Shown here: piece after piece, positions 3,891 through 18,892 of the stretch
Position numbering within the stretch: the first letter of the stretch is position 1
Layout of the letters: each line of letters begins with the position of its first letter
Source of the DNA: Chitinophagaceae bacterium
GTDB lineage: Bacteria > Bacteroidota > Bacteroidia > Chitinophagales > Chitinophagaceae
Assembly (NCBI GenBank): GCA_043760535.1
Contig: JAYUOV010000001.1
Coordinates: 1,221-65,220 of the forward strand
Length of the DNA: 64,000 nucleotides
Reading direction: 5' to 3'
Notes under the pieces: generated by a model
What the model was told of the DNA's origin: nothing
The model's database searches: none
Seen by the model: only the letters and a program-made list of their open reading frames with translations
Translations under genes and position numbers: made by a program

Positions 3891-5675
3891 ATGAAAAGAA
3901 TTGCATTTGTGATGTTAAGCAGCGTAGCAGTATTGGTTGCTGGTGCACAGAGTGTAGCCGATGGTGTTAAAGCCATGTACTACGAAAAGTACAAAACGGC
4001 TAGGGCCATTTTAGAGAAACTGGTATCAGCTAATCCTGCCGATGTGGATGCCAATTACTGGCTGGGTCAGGTGAGCCTAAACCAGAGCGATATAGCAAAT
4101 GCAAGAGCAGTATATGCAAAAGCTATGGGTACAACCACTCAAAACCCTTTAATAGTTGTAGGCATGGGTCATGTGGAGTTAATGGAAGGAAAGTTAACCG
4201 ATGCCAGAGCCCATTTTGATGCGGCCCTTGCTGCTACCAACAATAAAAAAGGTGGCGACCCTAAAATACTTACAGCCGTAGGCCGTGCCAATACCGATGG
4301 AGACAGCAAAACAGGAGACCCTGTTTTTGGTATAGAAAAACTGGCTACTGCAGCCAAGCTTGATTTAAAAGATCCTGATATTTATGTGCTGATGGGTATT
4401 AGTCAGCTAAAAAAGGGCGGGGAGTTTGGTGGCGAATCTAAAAAAGCTTACGAAGAAGCATTGGTACGTGACCCCAAATATGCAAAGGCTAAATTGCGTA
4501 TTGCCCGTATTTTTTTAAGCCAAAATAACAAAGAATTATTTCTGCCATTAATGGAAGAAGCTACACAGCTAGACCCTGCTTATGGCCCCGCATGGTTGGC
4601 TCTATATGCTTATTATGCGGAGCGGGATGTAAATAAGGCAAAAGAGTATATAGAAAAATACATAGCAGTAGCAGATAAGGATTGTGAAACAGATTTTTTT
4701 TATGCAGACTACCTATTAAGAGCTGGCAAAAGAGACCAAGCATTGGCCAAAGCCAAAGAAATGGAAGGTTTTTGCGGTGGGCAAAATTATCCTAAACTAG
4801 ACAAGCTTTATGCCATTATTTACGACCGCATGGGCGATTCGGTAAATGCTTTGGCATCTATGTCTAAATTTATGGCAAAAGAAAAAGAAGAAAAACTTAC
4901 CGCAACAGACCATGTTACACTAGCCACATTATTAGCTAAATTTTCTGGAAAAGAAACAGAGATAGAGCTCAATATGACGAAGGCGATAGCAAAGGATACG
5001 AGTACAGTTAAAAGAATAGAAGTGGCTAATATAATGGCCGAAACCTATGGTAAATCAAGCAACTTTAGCGGTCAGGCAAAATGGTTGGGTATAGCTGCTG
5101 CTATGAAACAAAAAGTAACCGCAACAGAATATTACTATTGGGGCGATGCCAATACAAAATATGCAAAAAGTATTGCCACATCTGATAGTATTTCACGAAA
5201 TGCAGCATTTGCAAAGTCAGATTCCATCTATGGTGCGTATATCGCTAATTATGCCGATCAGCCACAAGGATATGCTTTTAGAGCTATTGCTGCTAAACTT
5301 GCCGATTATGATACCTCCCGGGGAACTGCAATAACAGCAATAGATTCCTACACAAGTTTTTTAATGAAGGATACTCTTAAAAACAAGAGTACAATTATTC
5401 GTAACTATTATTACGAAATTCCATACTTCGCTAATAAAGTAAAAGATTTTCAGAAGGCATTGGATGCAGCAAACGCCATTTTAGTACTCGAACCAACAAA
5501 TGCATACGCATTGGGTGTAAAAGAAGCATCTACACAACAGTTGCAAAGGCCCAAAACACCAGTTGTAGCTCCCGTAAAAACCCCTGCAACACCCCCGGCT
5601 AAAACCCCGGCCAAAACACCTCCGGTAAAAAATAAAACAGCTAATACACCACCCCAAAAAACAAAAACGGTTTAG
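3891..5675 (+). CDS. secreted tetratricopeptide-repeat protein with Pro/Thr/Lys-rich C-terminal tail
   Basis: Signal peptide, repeated A/Y/L TPR-like helices, and a C-terminal PVVAPVKTPATPPAKTPAKTPPVKNK low-complexity tail. Confidence 0.75.
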   Translation: MKRIAFVMLSSVAVLVAGAQSVADGVKAMYYEKYKTARAILEKLVSANPADVDANYWLGQVSLNQSDIANARAVYAKAMGTTTQNPLIVVGMGHVELMEGKLTDARAHFDAALAATNNKKGGDPKILTAVGRANTDGDSKTGDPVFGIEKLATAAKLDLKDPDIYVLMGISQLKKGGEFGGESKKAYEEALVRDPKYAKAKLRIARIFLSQNNKELFLPLMEEATQLDPAYGPAWLALYAYYAERDVNKAKEYIEKYIAVADKDCETDFFYADYLLRAGKRDQALAKAKEMEGFCGGQNYPKLDKLYAIIYDRMGDSVNALASMSKFMAKEKEEKLTATDHVTLATLLAKFSGKETEIELNMTKAIAKDTSTVKRIEVANIMAETYGKSSNFSGQAKWLGIAAAMKQKVTATEYYYWGDANTKYAKSIATSDSISRNAAFAKSDSIYGAYIANYADQPQGYAFRAIAAKLADYDTSRGTAITAIDSYTSFLMKDTLKNKSTIIRNYYYEIPYFANKVKDFQKALDAANAILVLEPTNAYALGVKEASTQQLQRPKTPVVAPVKTPATPPAKTPAKTPPVKNKTANTPPQKTKTV

Positions 5676-6370: not shown

Positions 6371-6949
6371 ATGTCTGATATATATACTGGCCGGCCTGTT
6401 CGGTTTAATAATAAAGTAAAAGAAGTAGAAATGCCAGAAGGCATTAATGGTGAAGGCTTTTTTGTAACTAAACTAAGCGAAGTAGTAGGTCTTGGCCGTA
6501 AAAACTCTCTTTGGCCATTACCATTTGCCACCAGCTGCTGCGGTATAGAATTTATGGCCACCATGGGCAGCCATTACGATTTAGCTCGTTTTGGCGCCGA
6601 ACGTGTAGGTTTTAGCCCCCGCCAATGCGATTTATTAATGGTAATGGGTACCATTAGCAAAAAAATGGGCCCTGTTTTACGCAAGGTATATTTACAAATG
6701 GCCGAGCCCCGCTGGGTACTTAGCGTAGGAGCCTGTGCCTGCAGCGGTGGTATTTTCGATACCTATTCTGTATTGCAAGGCATAGATCAGGTAATACCGG
6801 TAGATGTATATGTGCCAGGATGCCCACCACGGCCCGAGGCCATACTAGACGGCTTTATGAAAATACAGGATATGGTAGGGCAAGAGAGTGTACGCCGCCG
6901 GGGCGACGAAAAGTACAAAGCATTGTTGGGAGAATACGGCATACAGTAA
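6371..6949 (+). CDS. nuoB: NADH-quinone oxidoreductase subunit B
   Basis: SLWPLPFATSCCGIEFMA, GACACSGG and VPGCPPRPEA are the N2-cluster cysteine motifs of NuoB. Confidence 0.95.
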   Translation: MSDIYTGRPVRFNNKVKEVEMPEGINGEGFFVTKLSEVVGLGRKNSLWPLPFATSCCGIEFMATMGSHYDLARFGAERVGFSPRQCDLLMVMGTISKKMGPVLRKVYLQMAEPRWVLSVGACACSGGIFDTYSVLQGIDQVIPVDVYVPGCPPRPEAILDGFMKIQDMVGQESVRRRGDEKYKALLGEYGIQ

Positions 6950-6962
6950 TAACATAAGCTAC

Positions 6963-7631
6963 ATGTTTCAACTTACAATCGATCATATACGCATCAATGA
7001 ATTAAAGCATGCACCTAATTTACCGCAGGTGGTAGATGAATTGTTATATTTTTTAGAGGAGGAACGAAAGAAAAGAAACCTATTTTTAGAAACATTGAAT
7101 GACGATGTTAAAGCTGAGTTTATAGGAGGAGAAATAATTCTTAACTCACCAGTAAAAAGAAAGCATTATTTGGTTGTAAAGTGGTTATCTAAATTAATGG
7201 ATACTTATGCCTCTGTAAAAAAAATTGGAGAGGTAGCTACAGAAAAGGTATTAATCCATTTAACCAGAAACGATTTCGAACCAGATATTGTTTTTTTTGA
7301 TAACCATAAAGCAGCGCAATTTCATAACAATACCATGTTACACCCAGCCCCGGGATTGGTAGTTGAGGTGTTAAGCGATAGCACAAAACTACGGGACAGA
7401 GGCATTAAATTTGAAGATTATGCCTACCATCAAATAGCAGAGTATTGGATTATTGATGCAGATACGGAAATGATAGAGCAGTATTTTTTGAATGATAAAA
7501 GCCAATACGAATTATTTTTAAAAACGAATTCGGGTAAAATAATTTCAAAAGTGATTGGTGGTTTTGAAATAGATGTGAAGGCTATTTTTTCGGCAGAAGA
7601 AAATTTAAAAGCACTAAGAAATATATTATAG
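6963..7631 (+). CDS. Uma2-family (DUF820) PD-(D/E)xK putative endonuclease, copy 1
   Basis: AEFIGGEIILNSP, EPDIVFF, VVEVLSDST and AEYWIIDAD match the Uma2 pattern. The gene starts 13 bp after the nuoB stop and ends 2 bp before the nuoC start. The start is set at the internal ATG 6963 because the track ORF overlaps nuoB. Confidence 0.8.
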   Translation: MFQLTIDHIRINELKHAPNLPQVVDELLYFLEEERKKRNLFLETLNDDVKAEFIGGEIILNSPVKRKHYLVVKWLSKLMDTYASVKKIGEVATEKVLIHLTRNDFEPDIVFFDNHKAAQFHNNTMLHPAPGLVVEVLSDSTKLRDRGIKFEDYAYHQIAEYWIIDADTEMIEQYFLNDKSQYELFLKTNSGKIISKVIGGFEIDVKAIFSAEENLKALRNIL

Positions 7632-8359: not shown

Positions 8360-9019
8360 ATGAAAAGCATTTTAGAACCCATACTACATTCTCCACTGCT
8401 GCCAGATTATGTGGCACAGTTAACCAATTTTTTACAATTGGAGAATGAAAAAAGATTGGCTTTCTACGAATGGCTTGATGAAGACATTAGGGCAGAATTT
8501 ATTGAAGGGGAGGTAATTATACATTCTCCACCAAGGGATATTCATATTATGGTCCTTGACAATATGGGTGAGCAGGTTAAGGCATTTGTTGTTAAAAACG
8601 ATTTAGGAATAGTACGAAGGGAGCAAGCTTTAGTAAGATTGAAAAGGAGTGATGTAATGCCAGACTTGTTATTTTTTGGAAGTAAAATCGCTGTAAAAAT
8701 TATTTCTAACACCAAAATTTATCCAATCCCGGAGTTCGTAGTAGAAGTACTAAGCCCATCTACAGAAAAAAACGACCGGAAAAGGAAATTTCTAGAATAT
8801 GCCATCAATGGAGTAAAAGAATATTGGATTGTAGATGCAGATAAAAAAACAGTGGAGCAATATATTCTCATTGGCCAATCATATAGATTAAAAGGCGCTT
8901 TCGATACAGACCAAGCCATAGAATGCATAGTTTTAAAAGGATTGTATGTTGAAGTGTCATCCATTTTTAACGAAAAAGAAAGTCAGCAAGCCGTATTAAA
9001 AATACTAACTGCTTCATAA
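8360..9019 (+). CDS. Uma2-family (DUF820) putative endonuclease, copy 2
   Basis: AEFIEGEVIIHSP, MPDLLFF, VVEVLSPST and KEYWIVDAD. It aligns along its whole length with copy 1. Confidence 0.8.
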   Translation: MKSILEPILHSPLLPDYVAQLTNFLQLENEKRLAFYEWLDEDIRAEFIEGEVIIHSPPRDIHIMVLDNMGEQVKAFVVKNDLGIVRREQALVRLKRSDVMPDLLFFGSKIAVKIISNTKIYPIPEFVVEVLSPSTEKNDRKRKFLEYAINGVKEYWIVDADKKTVEQYILIGQSYRLKGAFDTDQAIECIVLKGLYVEVSSIFNEKESQQAVLKILTAS

Positions 9020-9065
9020 AATATTTACAAAAAAACTACAGGACTACCTGTGTTACCATATACAA

Positions 9066-10307
9066 ATGAGCGAAATAATAACCACCGAACCGCACCATGT
9101 ACGCTTGCCCGATGGTAGCATACAAAAGCTTACTACCACCATGAACCTGGGGCCTACGCACCCGGCTACTCATGGTGTGTTTCAGAATATTATAGAGCTG
9201 GATGGCGAAACCATTGTAAGTGCCGTAAGTACAGTAGGCTATATCCACCGGGCTTTTGAAAAATTGGCCGAGCGCCGTCCACTATACCAAATAACTACCA
9301 TAACAGACAGGCTTAACTATTGCAGCAGCCCCATTAACAATATGGGCTGGCATCTTACTTGCGAAAAGTTACTCAGCGTTTCTACTCCTAAACGGGTAGA
9401 TTACCTGCGGGTTATTATTATGGAGCTAGCCCGTATTTCCGATCATCTTATATGTAATTCTATCGTTGGTGTAGATACAGGTGCTTATACCGGTTTTCTC
9501 TACGTAATGCAATACCGGGAACTGATATACGAAATTTACGAGGAAGTTTGCGGCAGTCGCCTTACCACCAACATGGGTCGCATCGGTGGCTTCGAAAGAA
9601 ATTTTACCAATACGGCTTTTGAGAAATTAGAAAAATTTCTTAAAGAATATCCAAAGGTTTTAAAAGAATTTGAAAACCTCTTTGAGCGGAATCGCATATT
9701 TATGGATCGCTGCCAGGGCACCGGCGCCATTACTGCCGAAAGGGCACTCAACTATGGTTTTACCGGCCCTAACCTACGTGCAGCCGGTGTAGATTACGAT
9801 GTAAGAGTTAGCGATCCCTACAGCAGCTATCAGGATTTTGATTTTACCGTACCCGTAGGTACTACCGGCGACAACTACGACCGCTGGCTGGTTCGCAATC
9901 AGGAAATGTGGCAGAGCCTTAGTATTATAGAACAGGCATACAAAAAAGTACAAGCATTTAAAGGCACCGAAGCAGACATTTACCATGCCGATGTGCCAGA
10001 ATATTACCTGCCCATGAAGGCCGATGTTTACACCAAAATGGAAGCCCTCATTTACCATTTCAAAATCATCATGGGCGAAACCGAAATACCAGCTGGCGAA
10101 TTATACCAGGCGGTTGAAGGCGGTAATGGCGAATTGGGTTTTTACCTCATCAGCGATGGTGGCCGTACGCCATATCGTTTGCATTTCCGCAGGCCATGTT
10201 TTATATATTATCAGGCATACCCCGAACTTACAAAAGGCGCTATGATAAGCGATGCCATTGTAACTATGAGCAGTTTAAATTTGATAGCAGGGGAGCTGGA
10301 TGCTTAA
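9066..10307 (+). CDS. nuoD: NADH-quinone oxidoreductase subunit D
   Basis: MNLGPTHPATHGVF, HRAFEKLAE and the C-terminal MSSLNLIAGELDA match NuoD / 49-kDa subunit. Confidence 0.95.
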   Translation: MSEIITTEPHHVRLPDGSIQKLTTTMNLGPTHPATHGVFQNIIELDGETIVSAVSTVGYIHRAFEKLAERRPLYQITTITDRLNYCSSPINNMGWHLTCEKLLSVSTPKRVDYLRVIIMELARISDHLICNSIVGVDTGAYTGFLYVMQYRELIYEIYEEVCGSRLTTNMGRIGGFERNFTNTAFEKLEKFLKEYPKVLKEFENLFERNRIFMDRCQGTGAITAERALNYGFTGPNLRAAGVDYDVRVSDPYSSYQDFDFTVPVGTTGDNYDRWLVRNQEMWQSLSIIEQAYKKVQAFKGTEADIYHADVPEYYLPMKADVYTKMEALIYHFKIIMGETEIPAGELYQAVEGGNGELGFYLISDGGRTPYRLHFRRPCFIYYQAYPELTKGAMISDAIVTMSSLNLIAGELDA

Positions 10308-10542
10308 AAAAAATAAGATGGAAAATGAAATCAAGTATAGAAAAGGGGGCATGGCTATCGTTGGCAGGAAGGTGTCTTTTGCCGAAGCTGATGAAATAGA
10401 CAATGAGTATTGGAGAAATGCTTCTGTCGCAGAAAGGTTTCAAACCCTAATAGATTTAAATTATATGATGTTTGGAAAGAAGCTTGGCCGTATTGCAAAA
10501 GTTGTAAAAAGAAGACATATAAGCGATGAAGAAGCCGATTAG
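10300..10542 (+). CDS. small acidic protein, possible antitoxin-like partner of the next gene
   Basis: 80-aa ORF. Its ATG overlaps the nuoD stop (ATGCTTAA) and its 3' end overlaps the next ORF by 17 nt. SFAEADEIDNEYWRNASVAERFQTLIDL is a motif I associate with small partner proteins of nucleotidyltransferase-like genes. The start is uncertain (internal Mets). Confidence 0.4.
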   Translation: MLKKNKMENEIKYRKGGMAIVGRKVSFAEADEIDNEYWRNASVAERFQTLIDLNYMMFGKKLGRIAKVVKRRHISDEEAD

Positions 10543-10993
10543 TATTCCAAATGACTTCATTGAATTTATTCCTTTGTGCAATAAGCATCAATTAAAGTAC
10601 ATGGTAATAGGCGGTTTTGCGGTCAGCATCCATGGATACCCACGTTCTACAAAAGACATGGACATTTGTATTCAATTAAGCGATGAAAATGCCGAAAAGA
10701 TGTTATTCGTTCTCAAGGAGCTCGGATTCAGTTCATTAAATCTAACTAAAGCTGATTTTTTAGTACCCCATTATTTTACCCAATTGGGCTATGAACCTGT
10801 TAGGATAGACATTATGAACGATATTGATGGTGTAGAATTTGAAGTGGCGTGGCAAAATAAAAAGGTAGTAAAAATGAAAGGTGTGGATTTTAACTTTATA
10901 GGCTATAACGAATTACTAATACTGAAACAATTAGCAGGACGCCCACAAGATTTGGCTGACATATACAAACTGAAACAACGAAATAAAAAATAA
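10526..10993 (+). CDS. minimal nucleotidyltransferase-fold protein (MNT/AbiEii-like family, unassigned)
   Basis: GGFAVSIHGYPRSTKDMDICI fits the hG[GS]x9-13Dh[DE] nucleotidyltransferase motif. The protein is 155 aa and ends 2 bp before nuoE. Confidence 0.55.
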   Translation: MKKPISIPNDFIEFIPLCNKHQLKYMVIGGFAVSIHGYPRSTKDMDICIQLSDENAEKMLFVLKELGFSSLNLTKADFLVPHYFTQLGYEPVRIDIMNDIDGVEFEVAWQNKKVVKMKGVDFNFIGYNELLILKQLAGRPQDLADIYKLKQRNKK

Positions 10994-11506: not shown

Positions 11507-11600
11507 CCCCGGCGAAAACCAGCCGGGGTCGGGCTTTCCGTTCCAATTTTTTTTGGCCATTCTTGTACTTCTTTTAGGGTTGGTGGCCGGCCAAAAAAAG
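11507..11600 (+). terminator. two hairpins immediately after nuoE (possible internal attenuator or terminator)
   Basis: CCCCGGC-GAAAACCA-GCCGGGG at 11507-11528 is followed some bases later by a T8 run. TTTTTTTGGCC ... GGCCAAAAAAA at 11548-11600 forms a second hairpin. Confidence 0.35.
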
Positions 11601-11732
11601 ATTTCCACTGCAATCCCTTACGCAGCAAACACACACCGCTAAATAAATTAGAAGCTTTAATTTTTAACACAAGCAAACACACTATCAATCACCAAATTTC
11701 ATACCCAAAGCCTTCAGCCTTGGGAAAACAAC

Positions 11733-12167
11733 ATGAAAACACTATTCTTCTTAGTTACGCTGTTTACATGTTTTGCAGCAGTAGGCCAAAGTAAAGATGA
11801 AACAACCATCATTTTCAGAACCTACCTGCTATGCCGCACTGTTTTTGGCAGCAAAGACAGCCTCACACTCGAAAACCTGTTTGCACAAACATCCACCTAC
11901 GGTCATTCTAACGGAAATGTACAAAACAGGGCACAAGCAATTAAGAGCATTTGTAGCAATAAAAGCAATTATACCGATACTTCCATCAGCAAAATGACGG
12001 TACATATAACCGGAAAAACGGCAATCTCAAGGCATTTGTTTAAGTGCAACGAAAACAAACCCAACGGAATCGTTTCTAAACTAGATTTTGCAATGACTTT
12101 GGTATGGGTAAAAGAAAAGAACGTTTGGTGCTTATTTGGTAGGCAGGCTTCCTTTATCGCTTTTTAA
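11733..12167 (+). CDS. secreted NTF2-fold protein (SnoaL/DUF4440-like)
   Basis: Signal peptide, then the pattern LFAQTSTYGHSNGNVQNRAQAIK ... ISKMTVHITGKTAI ... MTLVWVKEKNVW, typical of DUF4440-like proteins. Confidence 0.5.
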   Translation: MKTLFFLVTLFTCFAAVGQSKDETTIIFRTYLLCRTVFGSKDSLTLENLFAQTSTYGHSNGNVQNRAQAIKSICSNKSNYTDTSISKMTVHITGKTAISRHLFKCNENKPNGIVSKLDFAMTLVWVKEKNVWCLFGRQASFIAF

Positions 12168-12555: not shown

Positions 12556-12963
12556 ATGAAACTAACACCTTACCTCCATTTTGCTGGTAATGCAGCCGAA
12601 GCTTTAGAGTTTTACAAAGCAGCATTTGGCGGTGAAATAACCATGAGAAGCACCTACGGCGATAGCCCAAAGCATACTGAGCCAGAATGGAAAGATAAGC
12701 TGATGCATGCCCGTTTGGTGTTTGGAAATAATATGATGATGCTATCCGATTCGTTTAAAGGACAAGAACCCCTAAAAATGGGAAACGTACAATTAAGCCT
12801 GGAAATAAGCGACGCAGCAAGAATAGAAACCATATTTAGTGCCATAGCCGAAGGTGGTACTGTAACCATGCCGCTTCAAGATCAGTTTTGGGGTGCAAAA
12901 TTTGGTACGTTGATAGATAAATTTGGCATTAGCTGGATGTTTAACCATGAATTAAAAAAGTAA
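12556..12963 (+). CDS. VOC-family (glyoxalase/PhnB-like) protein
   Basis: MKLTPYLHFAGNAAEALEFYKAAFG ... LMHARL ... PLQDQFWGAKFGTLIDKFGISWMFN is the PhnB/YjdN-like pattern. Confidence 0.8.
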   Translation: MKLTPYLHFAGNAAEALEFYKAAFGGEITMRSTYGDSPKHTEPEWKDKLMHARLVFGNNMMMLSDSFKGQEPLKMGNVQLSLEISDAARIETIFSAIAEGGTVTMPLQDQFWGAKFGTLIDKFGISWMFNHELKK

Positions 12964-13366
12964 ATGAATTAAATAATATCACATTAAAAATCAGCAAAGG
13001 CAATAACTCGGTATAAGTTATTGCGAGTATTTCAGAATGGTGTTACTTGTATTATTAACCTAACACTATAGAAAGCAACAAGTGTTATTGAATTTTTGTA
13101 TAACAATAAATATTTTAAAGTATTCAAAATAACATACTCCAAAAAGTTAGAATGGAATGAATAGATAGATATAGGTTCTTTTGCTTTTTATTTGTAACAC
13201 TTATTTGCTATGTGGAGCTTAATTGTTTACAAAAAATGGTTAAAGAAAAAAAGGAAAGAAAAATGTTTTTAAGTCTTTGATAATTGAAAATTCGGTATTA
13301 ACAATAGTTAGCAAAAGAGAGTAAAAAAAAGTAAAAACTACCGCCTAAAAACGGCTAATAATTAAT

Positions 13367-14719
13367 ATGGCAAGAAAATTACTGTTAGAAAAAGCCCACA
13401 TACCCAACATTCGCCTGTACGATGTGTACCGCCGTGAGGGCGGCTATCGAAGTGTTGAAAAAGCTTTTAAAGAAATGGGGCCTGAGGCAATAGTGGAAGA
13501 AGTAAAAAAAAGCGGACTACGTGGCCGCGGCGGAGCCGGCTTTCCCACAGGAATGAAGTGGAGTTTCATTGCCAAGCCCGAAGGGGTTCCCCGCCACCTT
13601 GTGGTAAATGCCGATGAAAGCGAACCCGGTACTTTTAAAGATCGTTACCTGATGGAATTTTTGCCGCACCTACTGTTAGAAGGTATGATTGTATCATCTT
13701 TTGCCCTGGGTGCTAATGTTTCTTACATCTACATTCGTGGCGAATATGCCTGGATTGTGGATATATTAGAGCAAGCCATAGCCGAAGCCAAACACCATGG
13801 CTGGCTGGGTAAAAACATTTTAGGCAGTGGTTTCGACCATGAAATTTACATACAACGTGGTGCCGGTGCATACATCTGCGGCGAAGAAACCGCTTTACTG
13901 GAAAGCCTGGAAGGCAAACGTGGCAACCCAAGATTGAAACCACCTTTCCCGGCTGTAAAAGGCGTTTGGGAACGGCCAACGGTGGTAAATAATGTAGAAT
14001 CTATTGCGGCTGTGGGCCCAATTATCAATATTGGTGGCGAAGAATACGCTAAAATAGGTGTAGGTAAAAGCACCGGAACCAAACTCATTTCTGCCTGCGG
14101 CAATATTCGTAAGCCGGGTGTGTACGAAATAGACATGACGCAGAGCGTAGAAGAATTTATTTACAGCGATGAATATTGTGGCGGCATTGCCAACGGTAAA
14201 AGATTAAAAGCATGTATCCCTGGTGGCTCATCTGTGCCTATCTTGCCAGCGAATTTAATGTTAAAAACAGCTAAGGGGGATCCTCGGTATATGAGCTACG
14301 AAAGCCTGTCAGATGGTGGTTTTGCTACAGGTACCATGATGGGTAGTGGGGGCTTTATAGTACTGGATGAAAACCAATGTGTGGTACGCCACACTTACAG
14401 TCTTGCTCGTTTTTACCGCCACGAAAGCTGTGGCCAATGCAGCCCCTGCCGCGAAGGCACCGGCTGGATGGAGAAAATTTTGCTGAACATAGAAAGCGGC
14501 AAAGGCAAAATGAGTGATATTGATTTGCTTTGGGATATACAAAGGAAAATAGAAGGTAACACCATTTGTCCATTGGGAGATGCTGCTGCCTGGCCTGTGG
14601 CCGCTGCAATCCGTCATTTTAGAGATGAATTTGAATGGCATGTTTTGAATCCTCAGGAATGCCAGACCAGCAATTACGGATTAAGGCATTATGCAGATGA
14701 ATTGCATATACCGGCATAG
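13367..14719 (+). CDS. nuoF: NADH-quinone oxidoreductase subunit F
   Basis: GLRGRGGAGFPTGMKW (FMN/NADH site), ESCGQCSPCREG and CPLGDAA (N3 cluster). Confidence 0.95.
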   Translation: MARKLLLEKAHIPNIRLYDVYRREGGYRSVEKAFKEMGPEAIVEEVKKSGLRGRGGAGFPTGMKWSFIAKPEGVPRHLVVNADESEPGTFKDRYLMEFLPHLLLEGMIVSSFALGANVSYIYIRGEYAWIVDILEQAIAEAKHHGWLGKNILGSGFDHEIYIQRGAGAYICGEETALLESLEGKRGNPRLKPPFPAVKGVWERPTVVNNVESIAAVGPIINIGGEEYAKIGVGKSTGTKLISACGNIRKPGVYEIDMTQSVEEFIYSDEYCGGIANGKRLKACIPGGSSVPILPANLMLKTAKGDPRYMSYESLSDGGFATGTMMGSGGFIVLDENQCVVRHTYSLARFYRHESCGQCSPCREGTGWMEKILLNIESGKGKMSDIDLLWDIQRKIEGNTICPLGDAAAWPVAAAIRHFRDEFEWHVLNPQECQTSNYGLRHYADELHIPA

Positions 14720-14742: not shown

Positions 14743-15768
14743 ATGGAGAAAATAACCAACATAGAAATCAAAAATTTTAAAAGCATTAAGTACGTTGCAA
14801 TGAATAATTGTAAACGGATTAATGTTTTTGTTGGGCCGCCGAATGTTGGGAAGAGTAATGTGCTGGAGGCATTGGGTTTATTTATGTTGGGGAATATAAA
14901 CGATGTTGATCTTAGAGAGCTTCTAAGGTTTGAGAACTATAGCAATTTGTTTTACAACAATAATTTCAATACAAGTATCGAGATTAATCTTGACGGGAAT
15001 GAAAAAATTGATATATCCATAAAAAAGAGAGAGGTTCTTGTTTGGTCAAGTTCTAACAAGATGTCTTTTAAAATGCAAGTGCCACTAGACAATTTTAAAA
15101 TAAACGTTTGGGAGCATGGCGTGGGAAGTGAAGGTTACGACCAACAAGAAAGACTAAACATTAAGAAGTATTCTTTCAAAGAAGAAGGGGAAGCATTTTC
15201 ACTTGAGTACAAAAAGGAATTAGATGCTCCTTTTGGTGAAAATTTAGCAGATGTAATTAAATCTAACGAAGAGTTTAAAAAGGAGGTTATCGAAATATTC
15301 AGGGCTTATCAACTTAAATACGGTACTGATGAAAATGGTAAAATTAGAATTGTTAAAGAGCATGTAGATCAGCAAGTAGTGATTTTTCCTTACAAACAAA
15401 TGGCGGATACTTTACGTCGCCTCATTTTTTATAAAGCAGCAATAGCCTGTAATAGAGATACAGTGCTGCTGTTTGAAGAACCCGAATCACACATGTTTCC
15501 CCCATACATTTCAAAATTCACATCCGATATCATACACGACGCAAATAACAACCAATATTTCATTGCCACACACAGCCCCTATGTTTTAAACGATTTAATG
15601 GAAGATGCCAGAGAAGATTTAGCCATTTTTCTTGTTGACTATAAAAATGGCGAAACATTGATACATAAAATGAGCGACGCCGATATGCATGAAGCCTATC
15701 AGTTTGGGTACGACTTTTTTCTTAACATGAAAAATTTTATGCCCACAGACTCCCATGAAAAAGTATGA
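14743..15768 (+). CDS. ABC-type (AAA_15/AAA_21-like, OLD/RecF-like) ATPase
   Basis: Walker A GPPNVGKS (aa 31-38), signature-like MADTLRR, Walker B VLLFEEPESHMFP, and H-loop IATHSP. It starts 23 bp after the nuoF stop and is visibly more AT-rich than the flanking nuo genes. Confidence 0.75.
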   Translation: MEKITNIEIKNFKSIKYVAMNNCKRINVFVGPPNVGKSNVLEALGLFMLGNINDVDLRELLRFENYSNLFYNNNFNTSIEINLDGNEKIDISIKKREVLVWSSSNKMSFKMQVPLDNFKINVWEHGVGSEGYDQQERLNIKKYSFKEEGEAFSLEYKKELDAPFGENLADVIKSNEEFKKEVIEIFRAYQLKYGTDENGKIRIVKEHVDQQVVIFPYKQMADTLRRLIFYKAAIACNRDTVLLFEEPESHMFPPYISKFTSDIIHDANNNQYFIATHSPYVLNDLMEDAREDLAIFLVDYKNGETLIHKMSDADMHEAYQFGYDFFLNMKNFMPTDSHEKV

Positions 15769-16309
15769 TGAAAGTTGGTGGATGCACTTTGTGCCGGAAT
15801 GTTATTTTGATACAGTTCTTTTAAAAAGGTTGCTGGGAACTAACAAACGGGTTTTACATGTGCATGGGTGCAACAATGTGATAAACAAATTGAAAGGAAA
15901 GTTTTTGAATGATGATTTCGGTGTGGGATTGATTGATAAAGATAAAATTGAAATAGATTACTTAAAAGAAAGTGAAGTTGTTAGGGAAGTGGATGGTTTA
16001 ATAATTTGGAAAAACAAAATAAAAATGCATTTTGTTTTTCAATTGAACCCACCAATAGAAAAATGGCTTATTAAGATTTTGAATGATGAAGGTTTAAAAA
16101 TTGAAAACTTTGGATATCCTTCGGAATTCAAAAAATTGAAGAAAGGGATCAAGGATGATATTGATGACGAAAACGATATCAAACTTAATAAACTGGTTGA
16201 TGCTATTATTGCAACCAATTGCGAAACAATCAGGGTGTTTAAAGCATCGCTAATGTATTTAAAGGAAAAAAATTACGCCGCCGATATAAACGAATTGAAA
16301 AATGTCTGA
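15755..16309 (+). CDS. small TOPRIM-like protein (DUF4435/DUF4276-like), partner of the ATPase
   Basis: 184 aa. FVPE(15)CYFD(19)TVLL, then HVHGCNNV, then GLID(61)KD(63)K give an E...DxD arrangement with TOPRIM-like spacing. It overlaps the ATPase gene by 14 nt and the nuoG start by 8 nt. Confidence 0.45.
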   Translation: MKKYDESWWMHFVPECYFDTVLLKRLLGTNKRVLHVHGCNNVINKLKGKFLNDDFGVGLIDKDKIEIDYLKESEVVREVDGLIIWKNKIKMHFVFQLNPPIEKWLIKILNDEGLKIENFGYPSEFKKLKKGIKDDIDDENDIKLNKLVDAIIATNCETIRVFKASLMYLKEKNYAADINELKNV

Positions 16310-17402
16310 ACCAACACCATTATTTAAAGTCACCATCGACAACATTACCGTGGAAGTACCCGCGGGTACCACTATTTTGCAGGCTGCCCGTAAGGTAGGC
16401 GGCGAAGTGGCTCCACCCGCTATGTGCTTTTACACACCGTTGCAAGGCAGCGGTGGTAAATGCCGCACCTGCCTGGTAGAAGTAAGCAAAGGCAGCGAAA
16501 AAGATCCACGCCCCATGCCCAAGCTGGTGGCAAGCTGCCGCACTACAGTTATGGATGGTATGGAAGTAAAAAATATTACCAGCGAAAAAGTGATAGATGC
16601 CAGAGCCGGAGTGGTAGAATTTTTATTGATAAATCACCCATTGGATTGCCCTGTTTGCGATCAGGCAGGAGAATGCCATTTGCAGGATTTGGGTTATCAG
16701 CATGGAAAAGAAGGTACACGGTACGAATTTCAGCGCCGCACTTTTAAAAAGCATAATCTTGGCCCGTACATTCAGCTCCACATGACCCGCTGTATTATGT
16801 GTTTCCGCTGTGTTTTTACTGCCGATCAGGTTACCCAAAAAAGAGTACACGGTATATTAAGCCGTGGCGACCATGCAGAAATTGCTACTTACATAGAAAA
16901 AAGCCTCGACAACGATTTTATAGGCAATGTAATAGATGTTTGCCCTGTGGGAGCCTTAACAGACAGAACATTTCGCTTTAAAAACAGGGTTTGGTTTACC
17001 AAACCTGTAGATGCCCACCGTGATTGTGAAAAATGCTGCGGGAAAACTACTTTGTGGCTTCGTGGCGACGAAGTTTTTAGGGTTACCGCCCGTAAAGATG
17101 AGTGGGGCGAAATTATTAATACAGAGGAAGGCATACCAGGATGGATTTGTAACGAATGCAGGTTCGAAAAAAAGAAAGTAAGCGATTGGACAATAGAAGG
17201 CCCAACCAAAGTAAGCCGACATTCCGTTATTTCGCAGGGTCATTACGAGGTGTTGCAAAAGCCAAAAGAAGTGTTATACGATGTACTCACCACCCACAAG
17301 CCAAGGCTACTAATGGATATCCATAGCGTAAGCGAAGTAAACAAACCCAAAACCGAACTGAGCCAGATTAGTGGCCCGGCACACTCAACCGATTTTAAAT
17401 AA
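16302..17402 (+). CDS. nuoG: NADH-quinone oxidoreductase subunit G (short Bacteroidota form)
   Basis: N-terminal 2Fe-2S ferredoxin (CFYTPLQGSGGKCRTCLVE), HPLDCPVCDQAGECHLQD, and CIMCFRCV...CPVGAL. Confidence 0.9.
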   Translation: MSEPTPLFKVTIDNITVEVPAGTTILQAARKVGGEVAPPAMCFYTPLQGSGGKCRTCLVEVSKGSEKDPRPMPKLVASCRTTVMDGMEVKNITSEKVIDARAGVVEFLLINHPLDCPVCDQAGECHLQDLGYQHGKEGTRYEFQRRTFKKHNLGPYIQLHMTRCIMCFRCVFTADQVTQKRVHGILSRGDHAEIATYIEKSLDNDFIGNVIDVCPVGALTDRTFRFKNRVWFTKPVDAHRDCEKCCGKTTLWLRGDEVFRVTARKDEWGEIINTEEGIPGWICNECRFEKKKVSDWTIEGPTKVSRHSVISQGHYEVLQKPKEVLYDVLTTHKPRLLMDIHSVSEVNKPKTELSQISGPAHSTDFK

Positions 17403-18505: not shown

Positions 18506-18892
18506 ATGAGTATTATTAAAGCACCTCTTTTGTTTAGAGGTACAAAAAACGACAAGTATTTGTACAGATTGTTTGATAACGGCGCTAACTTATCGGTAAT
18601 TCGTAAAGACCTTGCAGAACAAATAGACTTACTAATACCGCTGCGGGAACCCAATCGTATGGCAACTGCTAATGTGAACGACTTTATGGAAGTTCACTAA
18701 AAATTTGTTTGTGATTTTTTTTTGAACGATGTACGGTTGTCTGATGAGTTTTTAGTGCTGGATGATGTAAGTGAAGAAGTAATAATAGGTGCAGCTACTA
18801 TGCAAAAATGGAGAATGAAATTAGATTTTGAACACAACACCGTTTCTGTGGATAATAAAGTGGCTATACTACAGATAGTTCATTTAAAATAA
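18506..18892 (+). pseudogene. retropepsin-like aspartic protease with a single in-frame TAA (18698-18700)
   Basis: LFDNGANLSVIRKDLAEQI (D-[ST/N]-G-A site) lies before the stop. The same frame continues KFVCDFFLNDVRLSDEFLVLDDVSEEVIIGAATMQKWRMKLDFEHNTV after it. The gene lies between nuoH and nuoI. Confidence 0.6.

Follow-up and report, generated by a model that had tools for sequence, protein, structure and literature searches.

A small gene pair for an ATPase and a presumed effector between nuoF and nuoG of a Chitinophagaceae bacterium, a candidate exchangeable module of defence or toxin-antitoxin type

Why do two small genes stand inside the operon for respiratory complex I, between nuoF and nuoG, with the second of them running into the start of nuoG? 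The question is raised by a stretch of 64,000 nucleotides (nt) from a Chitinophagaceae bacterium (GenBank assembly GCA_043760535.1, contig JAYUOV010000001.1, positions 1,221 to 65,220 of the forward strand), here called the window and numbered from its first letter, which carries on its + strand a complete nuo operon that extends from nuoA (about 5703) to nuoN (end 25702). The first of the two genes (gene 1) encodes an ABC ATPase and the second (gene 2) a protein of an unnamed family, and an earlier note, made from the letters of the window alone, had proposed them as a candidate defence pair of split-OLD or PARIS-like kind. Our analysis leads us to regard the pair, on balance, as probably an accessory and self-contained module of an ATPase and an effector, of defence or toxin-antitoxin type, which can be swapped between genomes and occupies a recurrent insertion site within the operon. 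The architecture of this module is that of PARIS, AbiL and MADS3-4 type defence, and of toxin-antitoxin pairs in which an AAA ATPase neutralizes the toxin.

The pair begins 23 nt after the end of nuoF (14719), and the ATG of nuoG at 16302 lies inside the final codons of gene 2 (AATGTCTGA; Table 1). The list of open reading frames (ORFs) bore out the arrangement described in the earlier note, including the 14-nt overlap between the two genes and the nuoG start within the 3' end of the second, and recomputed residue coordinates placed every motif quoted there for either protein where it had been reported. The pair is indeed more AT-rich than its flanks, with a G+C content of 0.345 (gene 1) and 0.312 (gene 2) compared with 0.466 in nuoF and 0.457 in nuoG. 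NuoF of the window is 82-96% identical to NuoF of 80 Chitinophagaceae genomes and of metagenome loci, and the orthologues of nuoF carry the Pfam domain Complex1_51K. Purifying selection acts on both members of the pair, the ratio of non-synonymous to synonymous substitution rates (dN/dS) being 0.10-0.21 in gene 1, 0.065-0.13 in gene 2 and, for comparison, 0.02-0.10 in nuoF and nuoG. Since both genes have many homologues and are under purifying selection, they are real genes.

Gene 1 encodes an ABC ATPase of AAA_15/AAA_21 type, from the group that includes OLD, AbiLi, AriA and GajA. Its product scored well above the Pfam gathering cut-offs for AAA_15 (60.9 bits against 32.1, E = 2e-16) and AAA_21 (54.4 bits against 27, E = 3e-14), and the Walker A, signature-like, Walker B and THSP motifs that had been pointed out along with this assignment are kept in 53 distinct homologues. 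Among the PADLOC models, which come without a curated cut-off, the best match was AbiLi (1.2e-21), with residues 4-304 falling on model positions 2-318 of 340, followed by ATPase-Toprim_I-B, the AriAB fusion (7.9e-19), HEC-01A, GajA, AriA (2.8e-17) and NsnB, and Old was matched too. NCBIfam returned sub-threshold matches only, namely the retron Eco8 effector (retron_eff_Eco8, 3e-15, far below its cut-off), MADS3 and PtuA. The middle of the protein is hypervariable: residues 46-215 share 13-53% identity between alleles, compared with 50-87% for the N- and C-terminal parts of the same alleles, and the mean column identity of residues 81-160 drops to 0.07-0.37 in the 53 homologues.

Gene 1 and gene 2 form an obligate two-gene module, inside the nuo operon as well as outside it. 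A gene 1-type ATPase was found directly upstream of gene 2 at every locus for which upstream sequence was present, including 46 of 46 non-nuo loci, in agreement with the earlier view of the two as a pair, and the reading frames overlap in nearly all homologous pairs, by 1-41 nt (mostly 1, 4, 8 or 14 nt).

Outside the nuo junction, pairs were located between uvrC and ETF genes, beside a DDE transposase, after nuoLMN, and in a capsule locus (L007) that also contains PRTase-CE, a reverse transcriptase and a second AAA_15 pair, while further neighbours included tra genes of conjugative transposons, GmrSD and HipA, and also housekeeping genes. The capsule locus, with PRTase-CE and the reverse transcriptase downstream, looks like a small cluster of the defence-island kind. 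At positions 1242-2881 of this locus, just upstream of the gene 1/gene 2-type pair, an AAA_15/AAA_21 ATPase (387 amino acids, aa) is encoded together with an overlapping 159-aa partner, which is unrelated to gene 2 and gave no Pfam match. In the plasmid collection, the only match to gene 1 was a truncated ATPase remnant in Parabacteroides.

The product of gene 2 belongs to a large family that is almost confined to Bacteroidota. A word-indexed search returned 66 close relatives, an exhaustive profile search yielded 1,039 representatives at 50% identity (E <= 1e-3), nearly all of them 170-195 aa long, and a second profile search with the family gave 849 clusters (90% identity, E <= 0.1), none of which contains a Pfam domain. 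The named relatives are Bacteroidota, namely Sphingobacterium, Pedobacter, Niabella, Lacibacter, Dyadobacter, Chitinophaga and Flavobacteriaceae. When gene 2 and 47 distant members of the family, 48 sequences in all, were compared with Pfam and PADLOC, and 10 more with Pfam, no recurrent family emerged. Two other leads were dropped: the label DUF3800, which one relative (P0246) bears as its UniRef name, was not reproduced by hmmscan, and the family profile retrieved only noise, such as CopM and DUF305, from PDB sequences.

The conserved residues of gene 2 bear on its putative activity. In 279 family members, the basis of the residue counts given here unless otherwise noted, Glu15, Asp61 and Asp63 are each kept in 279 of 279, position 19 is Asp in 273 and Glu in 6, and position 102 is Glu in 251 and Asp in 28; His35 is kept in 277, Pro99 in 69 of 69 family sequences, and Cys16, Cys39, Lys62, Lys64 and His87 are near-invariant in the alignments examined. 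AlphaFold2 models of the window protein (pLDDT 91.3) and of a 33%-identical relative (pLDDT 95.8) have the same predicted topology, which starts with a short strand with Glu15 at its end, a helix with Asp19, the His35 loop, a second helix and a strand ending in Asp61-x-Asp63, and continues with a beta-hairpin, a strand, a helix starting near Glu102 and a C-terminal helical domain. Glu15, Asp19, Asp61, Asp63 and Glu102 follow one another in the same order, at roughly the same spacing and in the same secondary-structure context as the residues of the catalytic TOPRIM set of AriB, which consists of E26, D30, D88, E90 and E122 (PMC11464382), and in the predicted secondary structure each of the acidic residues is placed where a TOPRIM would have it. 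An alignment by eye with the TOPRIM of E. coli YbjD sets LLVEGETE against FVPECYFD, LVDGDEAG against LIDKDKIE and LPALDMEHF against LNPPIEKWL of gene 2. Judged from these sequence features, the active site would consist of Glu15, Asp19, His35, Asp61-x-Asp63 and Glu102 and be TOPRIM-like in motif order only, and the protein probably works like a metal-dependent hydrolase of TOPRIM type.

The pair is patchily distributed at the nuoF-nuoG junction. For a survey we took the 80 species-representative genomes whose NuoF is the closest (82-88% identity; Chitinophagaceae or relatives) and inspected the region around nuoF. Both nuoF and nuoG were visible in 78 of them, and the pair stood between these two genes in only four species (L010, L015, L075 and L085). 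The earlier note had allowed for a complex I assembly factor conserved universally at this position, and such conservation was not found. The distance between nuoF and nuoG ranged from 10 to 1,658 nt and exceeded 250 nt in 30 of the 78 genomes. Other occupants, all on the + strand, were PDDEXK_3 genes of the GxxExxY type (12), 23S_rRNA_IVP genes for four-helix-bundle proteins (6), HEPN genes with NTP_transf_2/Polbeta (2) and Methyltransf_21 genes for FkbM methyltransferases (2), and such guests were seen in L011, L013, L022, L029, L037, L039, L043, L046, L051, L054, L059, L060, L064, L073, L074, L078 and L089. No description of guest genes in the nuo operon was found in the literature, no integrase or transposase accompanies the pair in the window, and a search for target-site duplications or inverted repeats around it gave only chance-level repeats. 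The nuoF-nuoG junction is a recurrent insertion site, and an in-operon hotspot of this kind has apparently not been described. A metagenome scan added 80 more loci, in which gene 2 relatives of at least about 40% identity almost always stand in the order nuoF-gene 1-gene 2-nuoG.

Comparison of these loci demonstrated that the pair is exchanged as an allele cassette, which, together with the recurrent filling of the junction, goes beyond the earlier note. Among 28 complete loci, NuoF proteins were 79-100% identical (median 84%), as compared to 36-100% (median 44%) for gene 1 and 27-100% (median 45%) for gene 2; the identities of gene 2 and NuoF were uncorrelated (Spearman 0.002) and those of gene 1 and gene 2 only loosely coupled (Spearman 0.41). 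Two comparisons are particularly telling. Between L170 and L118 the whole pair has been replaced: nuoF is 96% identical with a synonymous divergence (dS) of 0.48 and nuoG 98% identical with a dS of 0.44, as against 45% identity and a dS of 4.9 for gene 1 and 41% identity and a saturated dS for gene 2. Between L085 and L105 only gene 1 has been replaced, with a dS of 1.42 compared to 0.50 for nuoF, 0.47 for nuoG and 0.53 for gene 2. Vertical co-divergence of the pair with nuo is ruled out by these identity and dS comparisons. The closest relative of the window (L111), in which NuoF and NuoG are 96% identical, has an intact gene 1 with a different middle region, and a gene 2 (5001-5559 of that locus) with two in-frame stops and one frameshift, which retains its 3' end and its overlap with an intact nuoG.

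The connection to the nuoG start, already remarked upon in the earlier note, is conserved across these alleles. The sequence ...GATATAAAyGAAyTnAAnAATGnCTGA with an 8-nt overlap was present in 24 of 31 distinct occupied sites, the most divergent alleles included. L010, for example, keeps this sequence with a gene 2 that is only 32% identical overall, yet matches in 8 of its last 9 residues. Codon 2 of nuoG is NCT in 24 of 24 occupied sites with the 8-nt overlap and variable in empty sites. In a neighbour-joining tree the nuo-located gene 2 proteins fell into three groups and the non-nuo proteins into a separate clade, so that a single monophyletic nuo clade was not recovered; the tree is not decisive. 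The simplest reading of these data is an old insertion, the deeply diverged alleles of which would have been shuffled by homologous recombination via the conserved flanks, accompanied by frequent loss.

The stretch between 12918 and 18929 has no copy on its + strand of TAnnTTTG, the promoter motif of Bacteroidota at -7, and no terminator-like site was found on this strand between nuoF and nuoG. Because the pair has no recognizable promoter motif of its own and no terminator, it is probably co-transcribed with nuoF and nuoG, and nuoG translation probably starts from ribosomes that terminate on gene 2. In the whole window TAnnTTTG is rarer than expected (44 occurrences vs 99 +/- 10 in shuffles), a deficit consistent with selection against spurious promoters, and it is present 24 nt upstream of an 80-aa ORF of the operon (TAAATTTG), close to where the VOC gene that precedes nuoF ends, and 51 nt before nuoI. 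The spacer of some 400 nt that immediately precedes nuoF (12964-13366), with a G+C content of 0.26-0.30 and the -7-like motif TAAATTTG (12918-12925) just before it, may be an internal promoter driving nuoF, the pair and nuoG.

Several results speak against the reading of the pair as a defence or toxin-antitoxin module with a TOPRIM-type effector. Gene 2 had no match in Pfam, PADLOC, NCBIfam or PHROGs and belongs to no known effector family among them. An hhalign comparison of the 279-sequence family alignment with a YbjD OLD-TOPRIM profile (120 sequences) gave a probability of 0.5%, and Foldseek searches of the PDB with both gene 2 models returned nothing at E <= 0.001 and no TOPRIM in the top 30 matches. 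Residue 87 (16013-16015) is Asn in the window, at a position where 264 of 279 members (95%) have the His of a KH motif. Gene 2 of L111, known from a single metagenome contig, appears to be either a pseudogene or an assembly error. The non-nuo loci show only a modest association with defence islands, and the gene 2 family was not found in viral contigs, in the plasmid collection (tblastn) or in PHROGs, so that the pair is not obviously carried by mobile elements. Finally, defence or toxicity is putative for every member of the gene 2 family.

Membership of gene 2 in the TOPRIM superfamily was looked for by profile and structure comparison and not demonstrated; it is unproven, because neither the profile comparison nor two Foldseek searches with very confident models found a TOPRIM. 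The TOPRIM-type Pfam models (Toprim, OLD-like_TOPRIM, DUF4435, DUF4276 and RloB) matched none of 58 family sequences save for one weak DUF4276 hit (E = 0.059), the TOPRIM-type models of PADLOC matched none of the 48 family sequences, and hhalign of the family against the single YbjD sequence gave no match. The negative profile result is not final, because the YbjD profile is narrow. In the Foldseek list for gene 2, drawn from a PDB library that contains structures of OLD and Gabija GajA and ought to contain PARIS as well, GajA ranked 31st (E = 0.7), and a search of BFVD gave no match. The residues named in the earlier note, Glu15, Asp19, Asp61 and Asp63, proved to be invariant or nearly so, while the link it had drawn from them to DUF4435 or DUF4276 is backed by no profile, nor is one to RloB or OLD-TOPRIM, and neither profile nor Foldseek comparison found a TOPRIM or nuclease fold, an outcome that it had itself named as counting against its proposal. 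What stands of the split-OLD or PARIS-like pair is the AAA_15/21 ATPase, the obligate pairing and the motif order; a TOPRIM family or fold for gene 2 is not supported by these comparisons.

The gene 2 product might therefore be neither a TOPRIM nor a nuclease, and instead another enzyme, such as a nucleosidase-like or nucleotide-hydrolysing one, or a new fold, that serves as the output of the ATPase. We regard this as somewhat unlikely. In addition to the failure of all TOPRIM-type profiles, it would be in line with the predicted topology, which in both models lacks the canonical TOPRIM strand 2 and has an added beta-hairpin, and with the top PDB matches in Foldseek, which for both models were MTAN/futalosine nucleosidases, consistent between the models and non-significant (probability <=0.47, E = 0.06-0.5, 68 columns). 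However, these MTAN alignments have a TM-score of about 0.2 and a root-mean-square deviation of about 7 A, and the five acidic residues share order, similar spacing and structural context with the TOPRIMs of AriB and OLD.

Less probable still, in our opinion, is that the pair has no antiviral role and acts purely selfishly, as a cassette for addiction or hitch-hiking. It would then persist because its welding to the translation of nuoG, and to the transcription of the essential operon, makes its loss costly. The conserved overlap with the nuoG start, the retention of the 3' end of gene 2 even where this gene appears to be a pseudogene and the lack of an own promoter motif all fit such a cassette; its neighbours at the nuo junctions are classic genes of the selfish or toxin-antitoxin type (HEPN-MNT, Uma2, PDDEXK_3 and 23S_rRNA_IVP), and AAA_15/21 ATPases have been validated as antitoxins (PMC10440598). 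On the other hand, a hypervariable insert and deep alleles that are exchanged among close relatives are expected of a diversification of target recognition rather than of simple addiction, and the loss of the pair is evidently tolerated, since 74 of 78 related species are without it. It is scarcely credible that the pair has been domesticated and serves complex I as a lineage-specific accessory or assembly factor, for although it is co-directional with nuo, has no own promoter motif, is translationally coupled to nuoG in most carriers and is under purifying selection, only 4 of 78 related species carry it, its alleles are deeply diverged within near-identical flanks and do not co-diverge with NuoF or NuoG, gene 2 is apparently decayed in the closest relative where nuoG is intact, the same family occurs in unrelated contexts, and unrelated guests fill the same junction in other species; the pair is accessory and not a component of complex I.

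How a module of ATPase and effector might operate at this site can be outlined by analogy with PARIS, AbiL and AAA-neutralized toxin-antitoxin pairs (PMC11464382; PMC13064643; PMC10440598). The ATPase would hold the small gene 2 effector inactive; its hypervariable insert would recognize a trigger, the binding of which would release the effector in an ATP-dependent manner; and in the freed gene 2 protein Glu15, Asp19, Asp61, Asp63 and Glu102 would form a two-metal site for the hydrolysis of a nucleic acid or nucleotide. The location in an essential operon with constitutive expression would supply transcription and hinder clean loss, and alleles could be exchanged by recombination through the 3' end of nuoF and the N-terminus of gene 1 on one side and the 3' end of gene 2 and the start of nuoG on the other. 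Taken together, and put forward as a possibility that falls short of being probable, the nuo junctions of Chitinophagaceae may constitute an undescribed in-operon hotspot into which small defence or toxin-antitoxin cassettes are inserted co-directionally and within which they are exchanged by homologous recombination via the flanking essential genes. In this combined picture the present pair would be translationally welded to nuoG, the 184-aa protein would found a new family of effectors for AAA_15/21 sensor ATPases, either as an extremely divergent minimal TOPRIM or as a new fold, and expression hard-wired to a constitutive respiratory operon could let the module sense a shut-off of host gene expression.

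The gene 2 family is of interest beyond this locus, as a large putative effector family (about 1,000 clusters at 50% identity) without annotation in the libraries searched that is the obligate partner of PARIS/AbiL-type sensor ATPases. The defence biology of Bacteroidota is poorly charted, and the family is not represented by a model in PADLOC v2. If the situation described here were general, a discovery of defence and toxin-antitoxin systems that is restricted to islands and mobile elements would miss in-operon loci, and embedding in an operon would be a possible strategy of expression and retention. The hypervariable insert of the ATPase and the naturally swapped alleles offer ready material for work on specificity.

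The pair is not the only guest of the nuo operon. In the window, guests stand at almost every junction from nuoB to nuoG (Table 1), and in the surveyed genomes spacers of more than 250 nt were also found at the junctions D-E (10 of 72), E-F (43 of 77), G-H (4 of 72) and H-I (8 of 66), E-F being the nuo junction most often occupied. The two Uma2 genes have a G+C content of 0.34-0.35 compared with 0.39-0.46 for their nuo neighbours. The 80-aa ORF and the 155-aa nucleotidyltransferase gene may form a toxin-antitoxin-like pair, and the latter gene was present at the same nuoD-nuoE junction in L002, L039, L071, L074 and L083. The DUF4440 and VOC genes were found at the nuoE-nuoF junction of many relatives. 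Short NTP_transf_2/Polbeta genes were observed in L002 at nuoH-nuoI (8993-9154) and in L003 just downstream of nuoG (2394-2606). The Flavo-1 RNA motif was considered as a marker of the hotspot and rejected, as it is absent from 9 related nuo loci.

Table 1. Features of the nuoF-nuoG gene pair, its flanks and other guests of the nuo operon in the window.
Feature	Coordinates	Strand	Evidence and remarks
Two Uma2-family genes (putative PD-(D/E)XK restriction endonuclease-like)	6888-7631 (nuoB-nuoC), 8360-9019 (nuoC-nuoD)	+	Pfam 1.8e-27, 1.2e-29
80-aa ORF and overlapping 155-aa DUF2204/DUF6036-type nucleotidyltransferase, nuoD-nuoE	10300-10542, 10526-10993	+	
Flavo-1 RNA motif (Rfam RF01705), between nuoE and DUF4440 gene	11523-11631	-	60 bits vs gathering score 42
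DUF4440 protein with signal-peptide-like N-terminus; VOC / 3-demethylubiquinone-methyltransferase-like protein; nuoE-nuoF	11733-12167, 12556-12963	+	
nuoF (NADH dehydrogenase 51-kDa subunit), conserved left flank of insertion site	13367..14719	+	ORF
Gene 1, 341-aa ABC ATPase of AAA_15/AAA_21 (OLD, AbiLi, AriA) type; presumed sensor or neutralizer	14743..15768	+	Pfam, PADLOC, dN/dS
Walker A GPPNVGKS, gene 1 residues 31-38	14833..14856	+	6/8 positions >=95% identical in 53 distinct gene 1 homologues
Gene 1, hypervariable middle (about residues 46-215), a candidate region for recognition	14878..15387	+	Allele identities
Signature-like MADTLRR (gene 1 residues 220-226) and Walker B with D-loop VLLFEEPESH (241-250)	15400..15492	+	ADTL, R225, EEPE and H250 >=95% identical (53 homologues)
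H-loop region IATHSP, gene 1 residues 274-279	15562..15579	+	THSP >=95% identical (53 homologues)
Gene 1 stop / gene 2 start overlap, 14 nt (translational coupling)	15755..15768	+	ORF coordinates
Gene 2, encoding a protein of 184 aa from an unnamed family; TOPRIM-like motif set, presumed metal-dependent effector	15755..16309	+	Profile search, AlphaFold2, dN/dS
Motif I FVPECYFD, gene 2 residues 12-19	15788..15811	+	Glu15 directly after strand 1, Asp19 in next helix
Loop and helix LHVHGCNNV of gene 2, with near-invariant His35, Cys39, Val42	15854..15880	+	Family alignments
Motif II GLIDKDK, gene 2 residues 58-64; Asp61-x-Asp63 closing a strand (residues 56-61)	15926..15946	+	Conservation, AlphaFold2
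Motif III LNPPIEKW of gene 2; Pro99, Glu102 at start of helix after strand 92-97	16043..16066	+	Conservation, AlphaFold2
Gene 2 end / nuoG start overlap, 8 nt, ATGTCTGA	16302..16309	+	Final codons and stop of gene 2 contain the nuoG start codon
nuoG, conserved right flank of insertion site	16302..17402	+	ORF; 67-100% identical among pair-bearing loci
64-aa Asp_protease_2-like fragment, nuoH-nuoI	18506-18700	+	

Among the known systems, AbiL, an abortive infection system of Lactococcus composed of the ATPase AbiLi and the RloB-type TOPRIM protein AbiLii, resembles the pair in consisting of two genes with the ATPase first and a smaller effector second, and AbiLi is the best and near full-length PADLOC match of gene 1. 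However, gene 2 matches neither AbiLii (PADLOC) nor RloB (Pfam), at E <= 1 for gene 2 and E <= 10 for 47 family members, and AbiL resides on a Lactococcus plasmid, in contrast to the chromosomal location within an operon of a Bacteroidota bacterium. In PARIS, in which the ABC ATPase AriA is combined with the DUF4435 TOPRIM tRNA nuclease AriB in a complex of AriA6:AriB3 type that lets the effector go upon binding of a trigger, the ATPase is likewise of the AAA_15/21 type. The core of AriA is conserved, its trigger-binding pores only poorly (PMC11464382), and gene 1, similarly, is poorly conserved outside the catalytic core, while E15, D19, D61, D63 and E102 of gene 2 parallel the catalytic set of AriB. 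In contrast, the gene 2 protein has only 184 aa (about 21 kDa) as compared to about 300 aa (about 35 kDa) in AriB, it matches no DUF4435 or AriB model and is led by structure comparison to no TOPRIM among the top 30 matches, its family was not found on phages or satellites in the viral contigs and PHROGs searched, and gene 1 and gene 2 are only loosely coupled, unlike ariA and ariB, which co-evolve.

The OLD nucleases, such as P2 Old, E. coli YbjD, Gabija GajA and the retron Eco8 effector, have an ATPase of the same class as gene 1, which is fused there to the TOPRIM and separated here into two genes; the motifs of gene 2 can be aligned with YbjD by eye, in contrast to the outcome of hhalign and the low rank of GajA in Foldseek. 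Node D29 of NetFlax, in which an AAA ATPase is associated with TOPRIM_OLD, HEPN or HNH toxins (PMC10440598), is bicistronic and combines an AAA_15/21 ATPase with interchangeable small effectors, as does the present module, although gene 2 was not identified among the toxin nodes described. With regard to its site, the pair can be compared to the defence hotspots flanked by core genes and to those of P2 and P4, which share with nuoF-nuoG the conserved flanks, the variable cargo of defence or toxin-antitoxin genes and the exchange of alleles. In contrast to these hotspots, the nuoF-nuoG site is an intergenic junction within an essential operon and presumably co-transcribed with it, its cargo is strictly co-directional, no integrase, transposase or flanking repeats were found there, and the pair described here overlaps translationally with the essential nuoG downstream.

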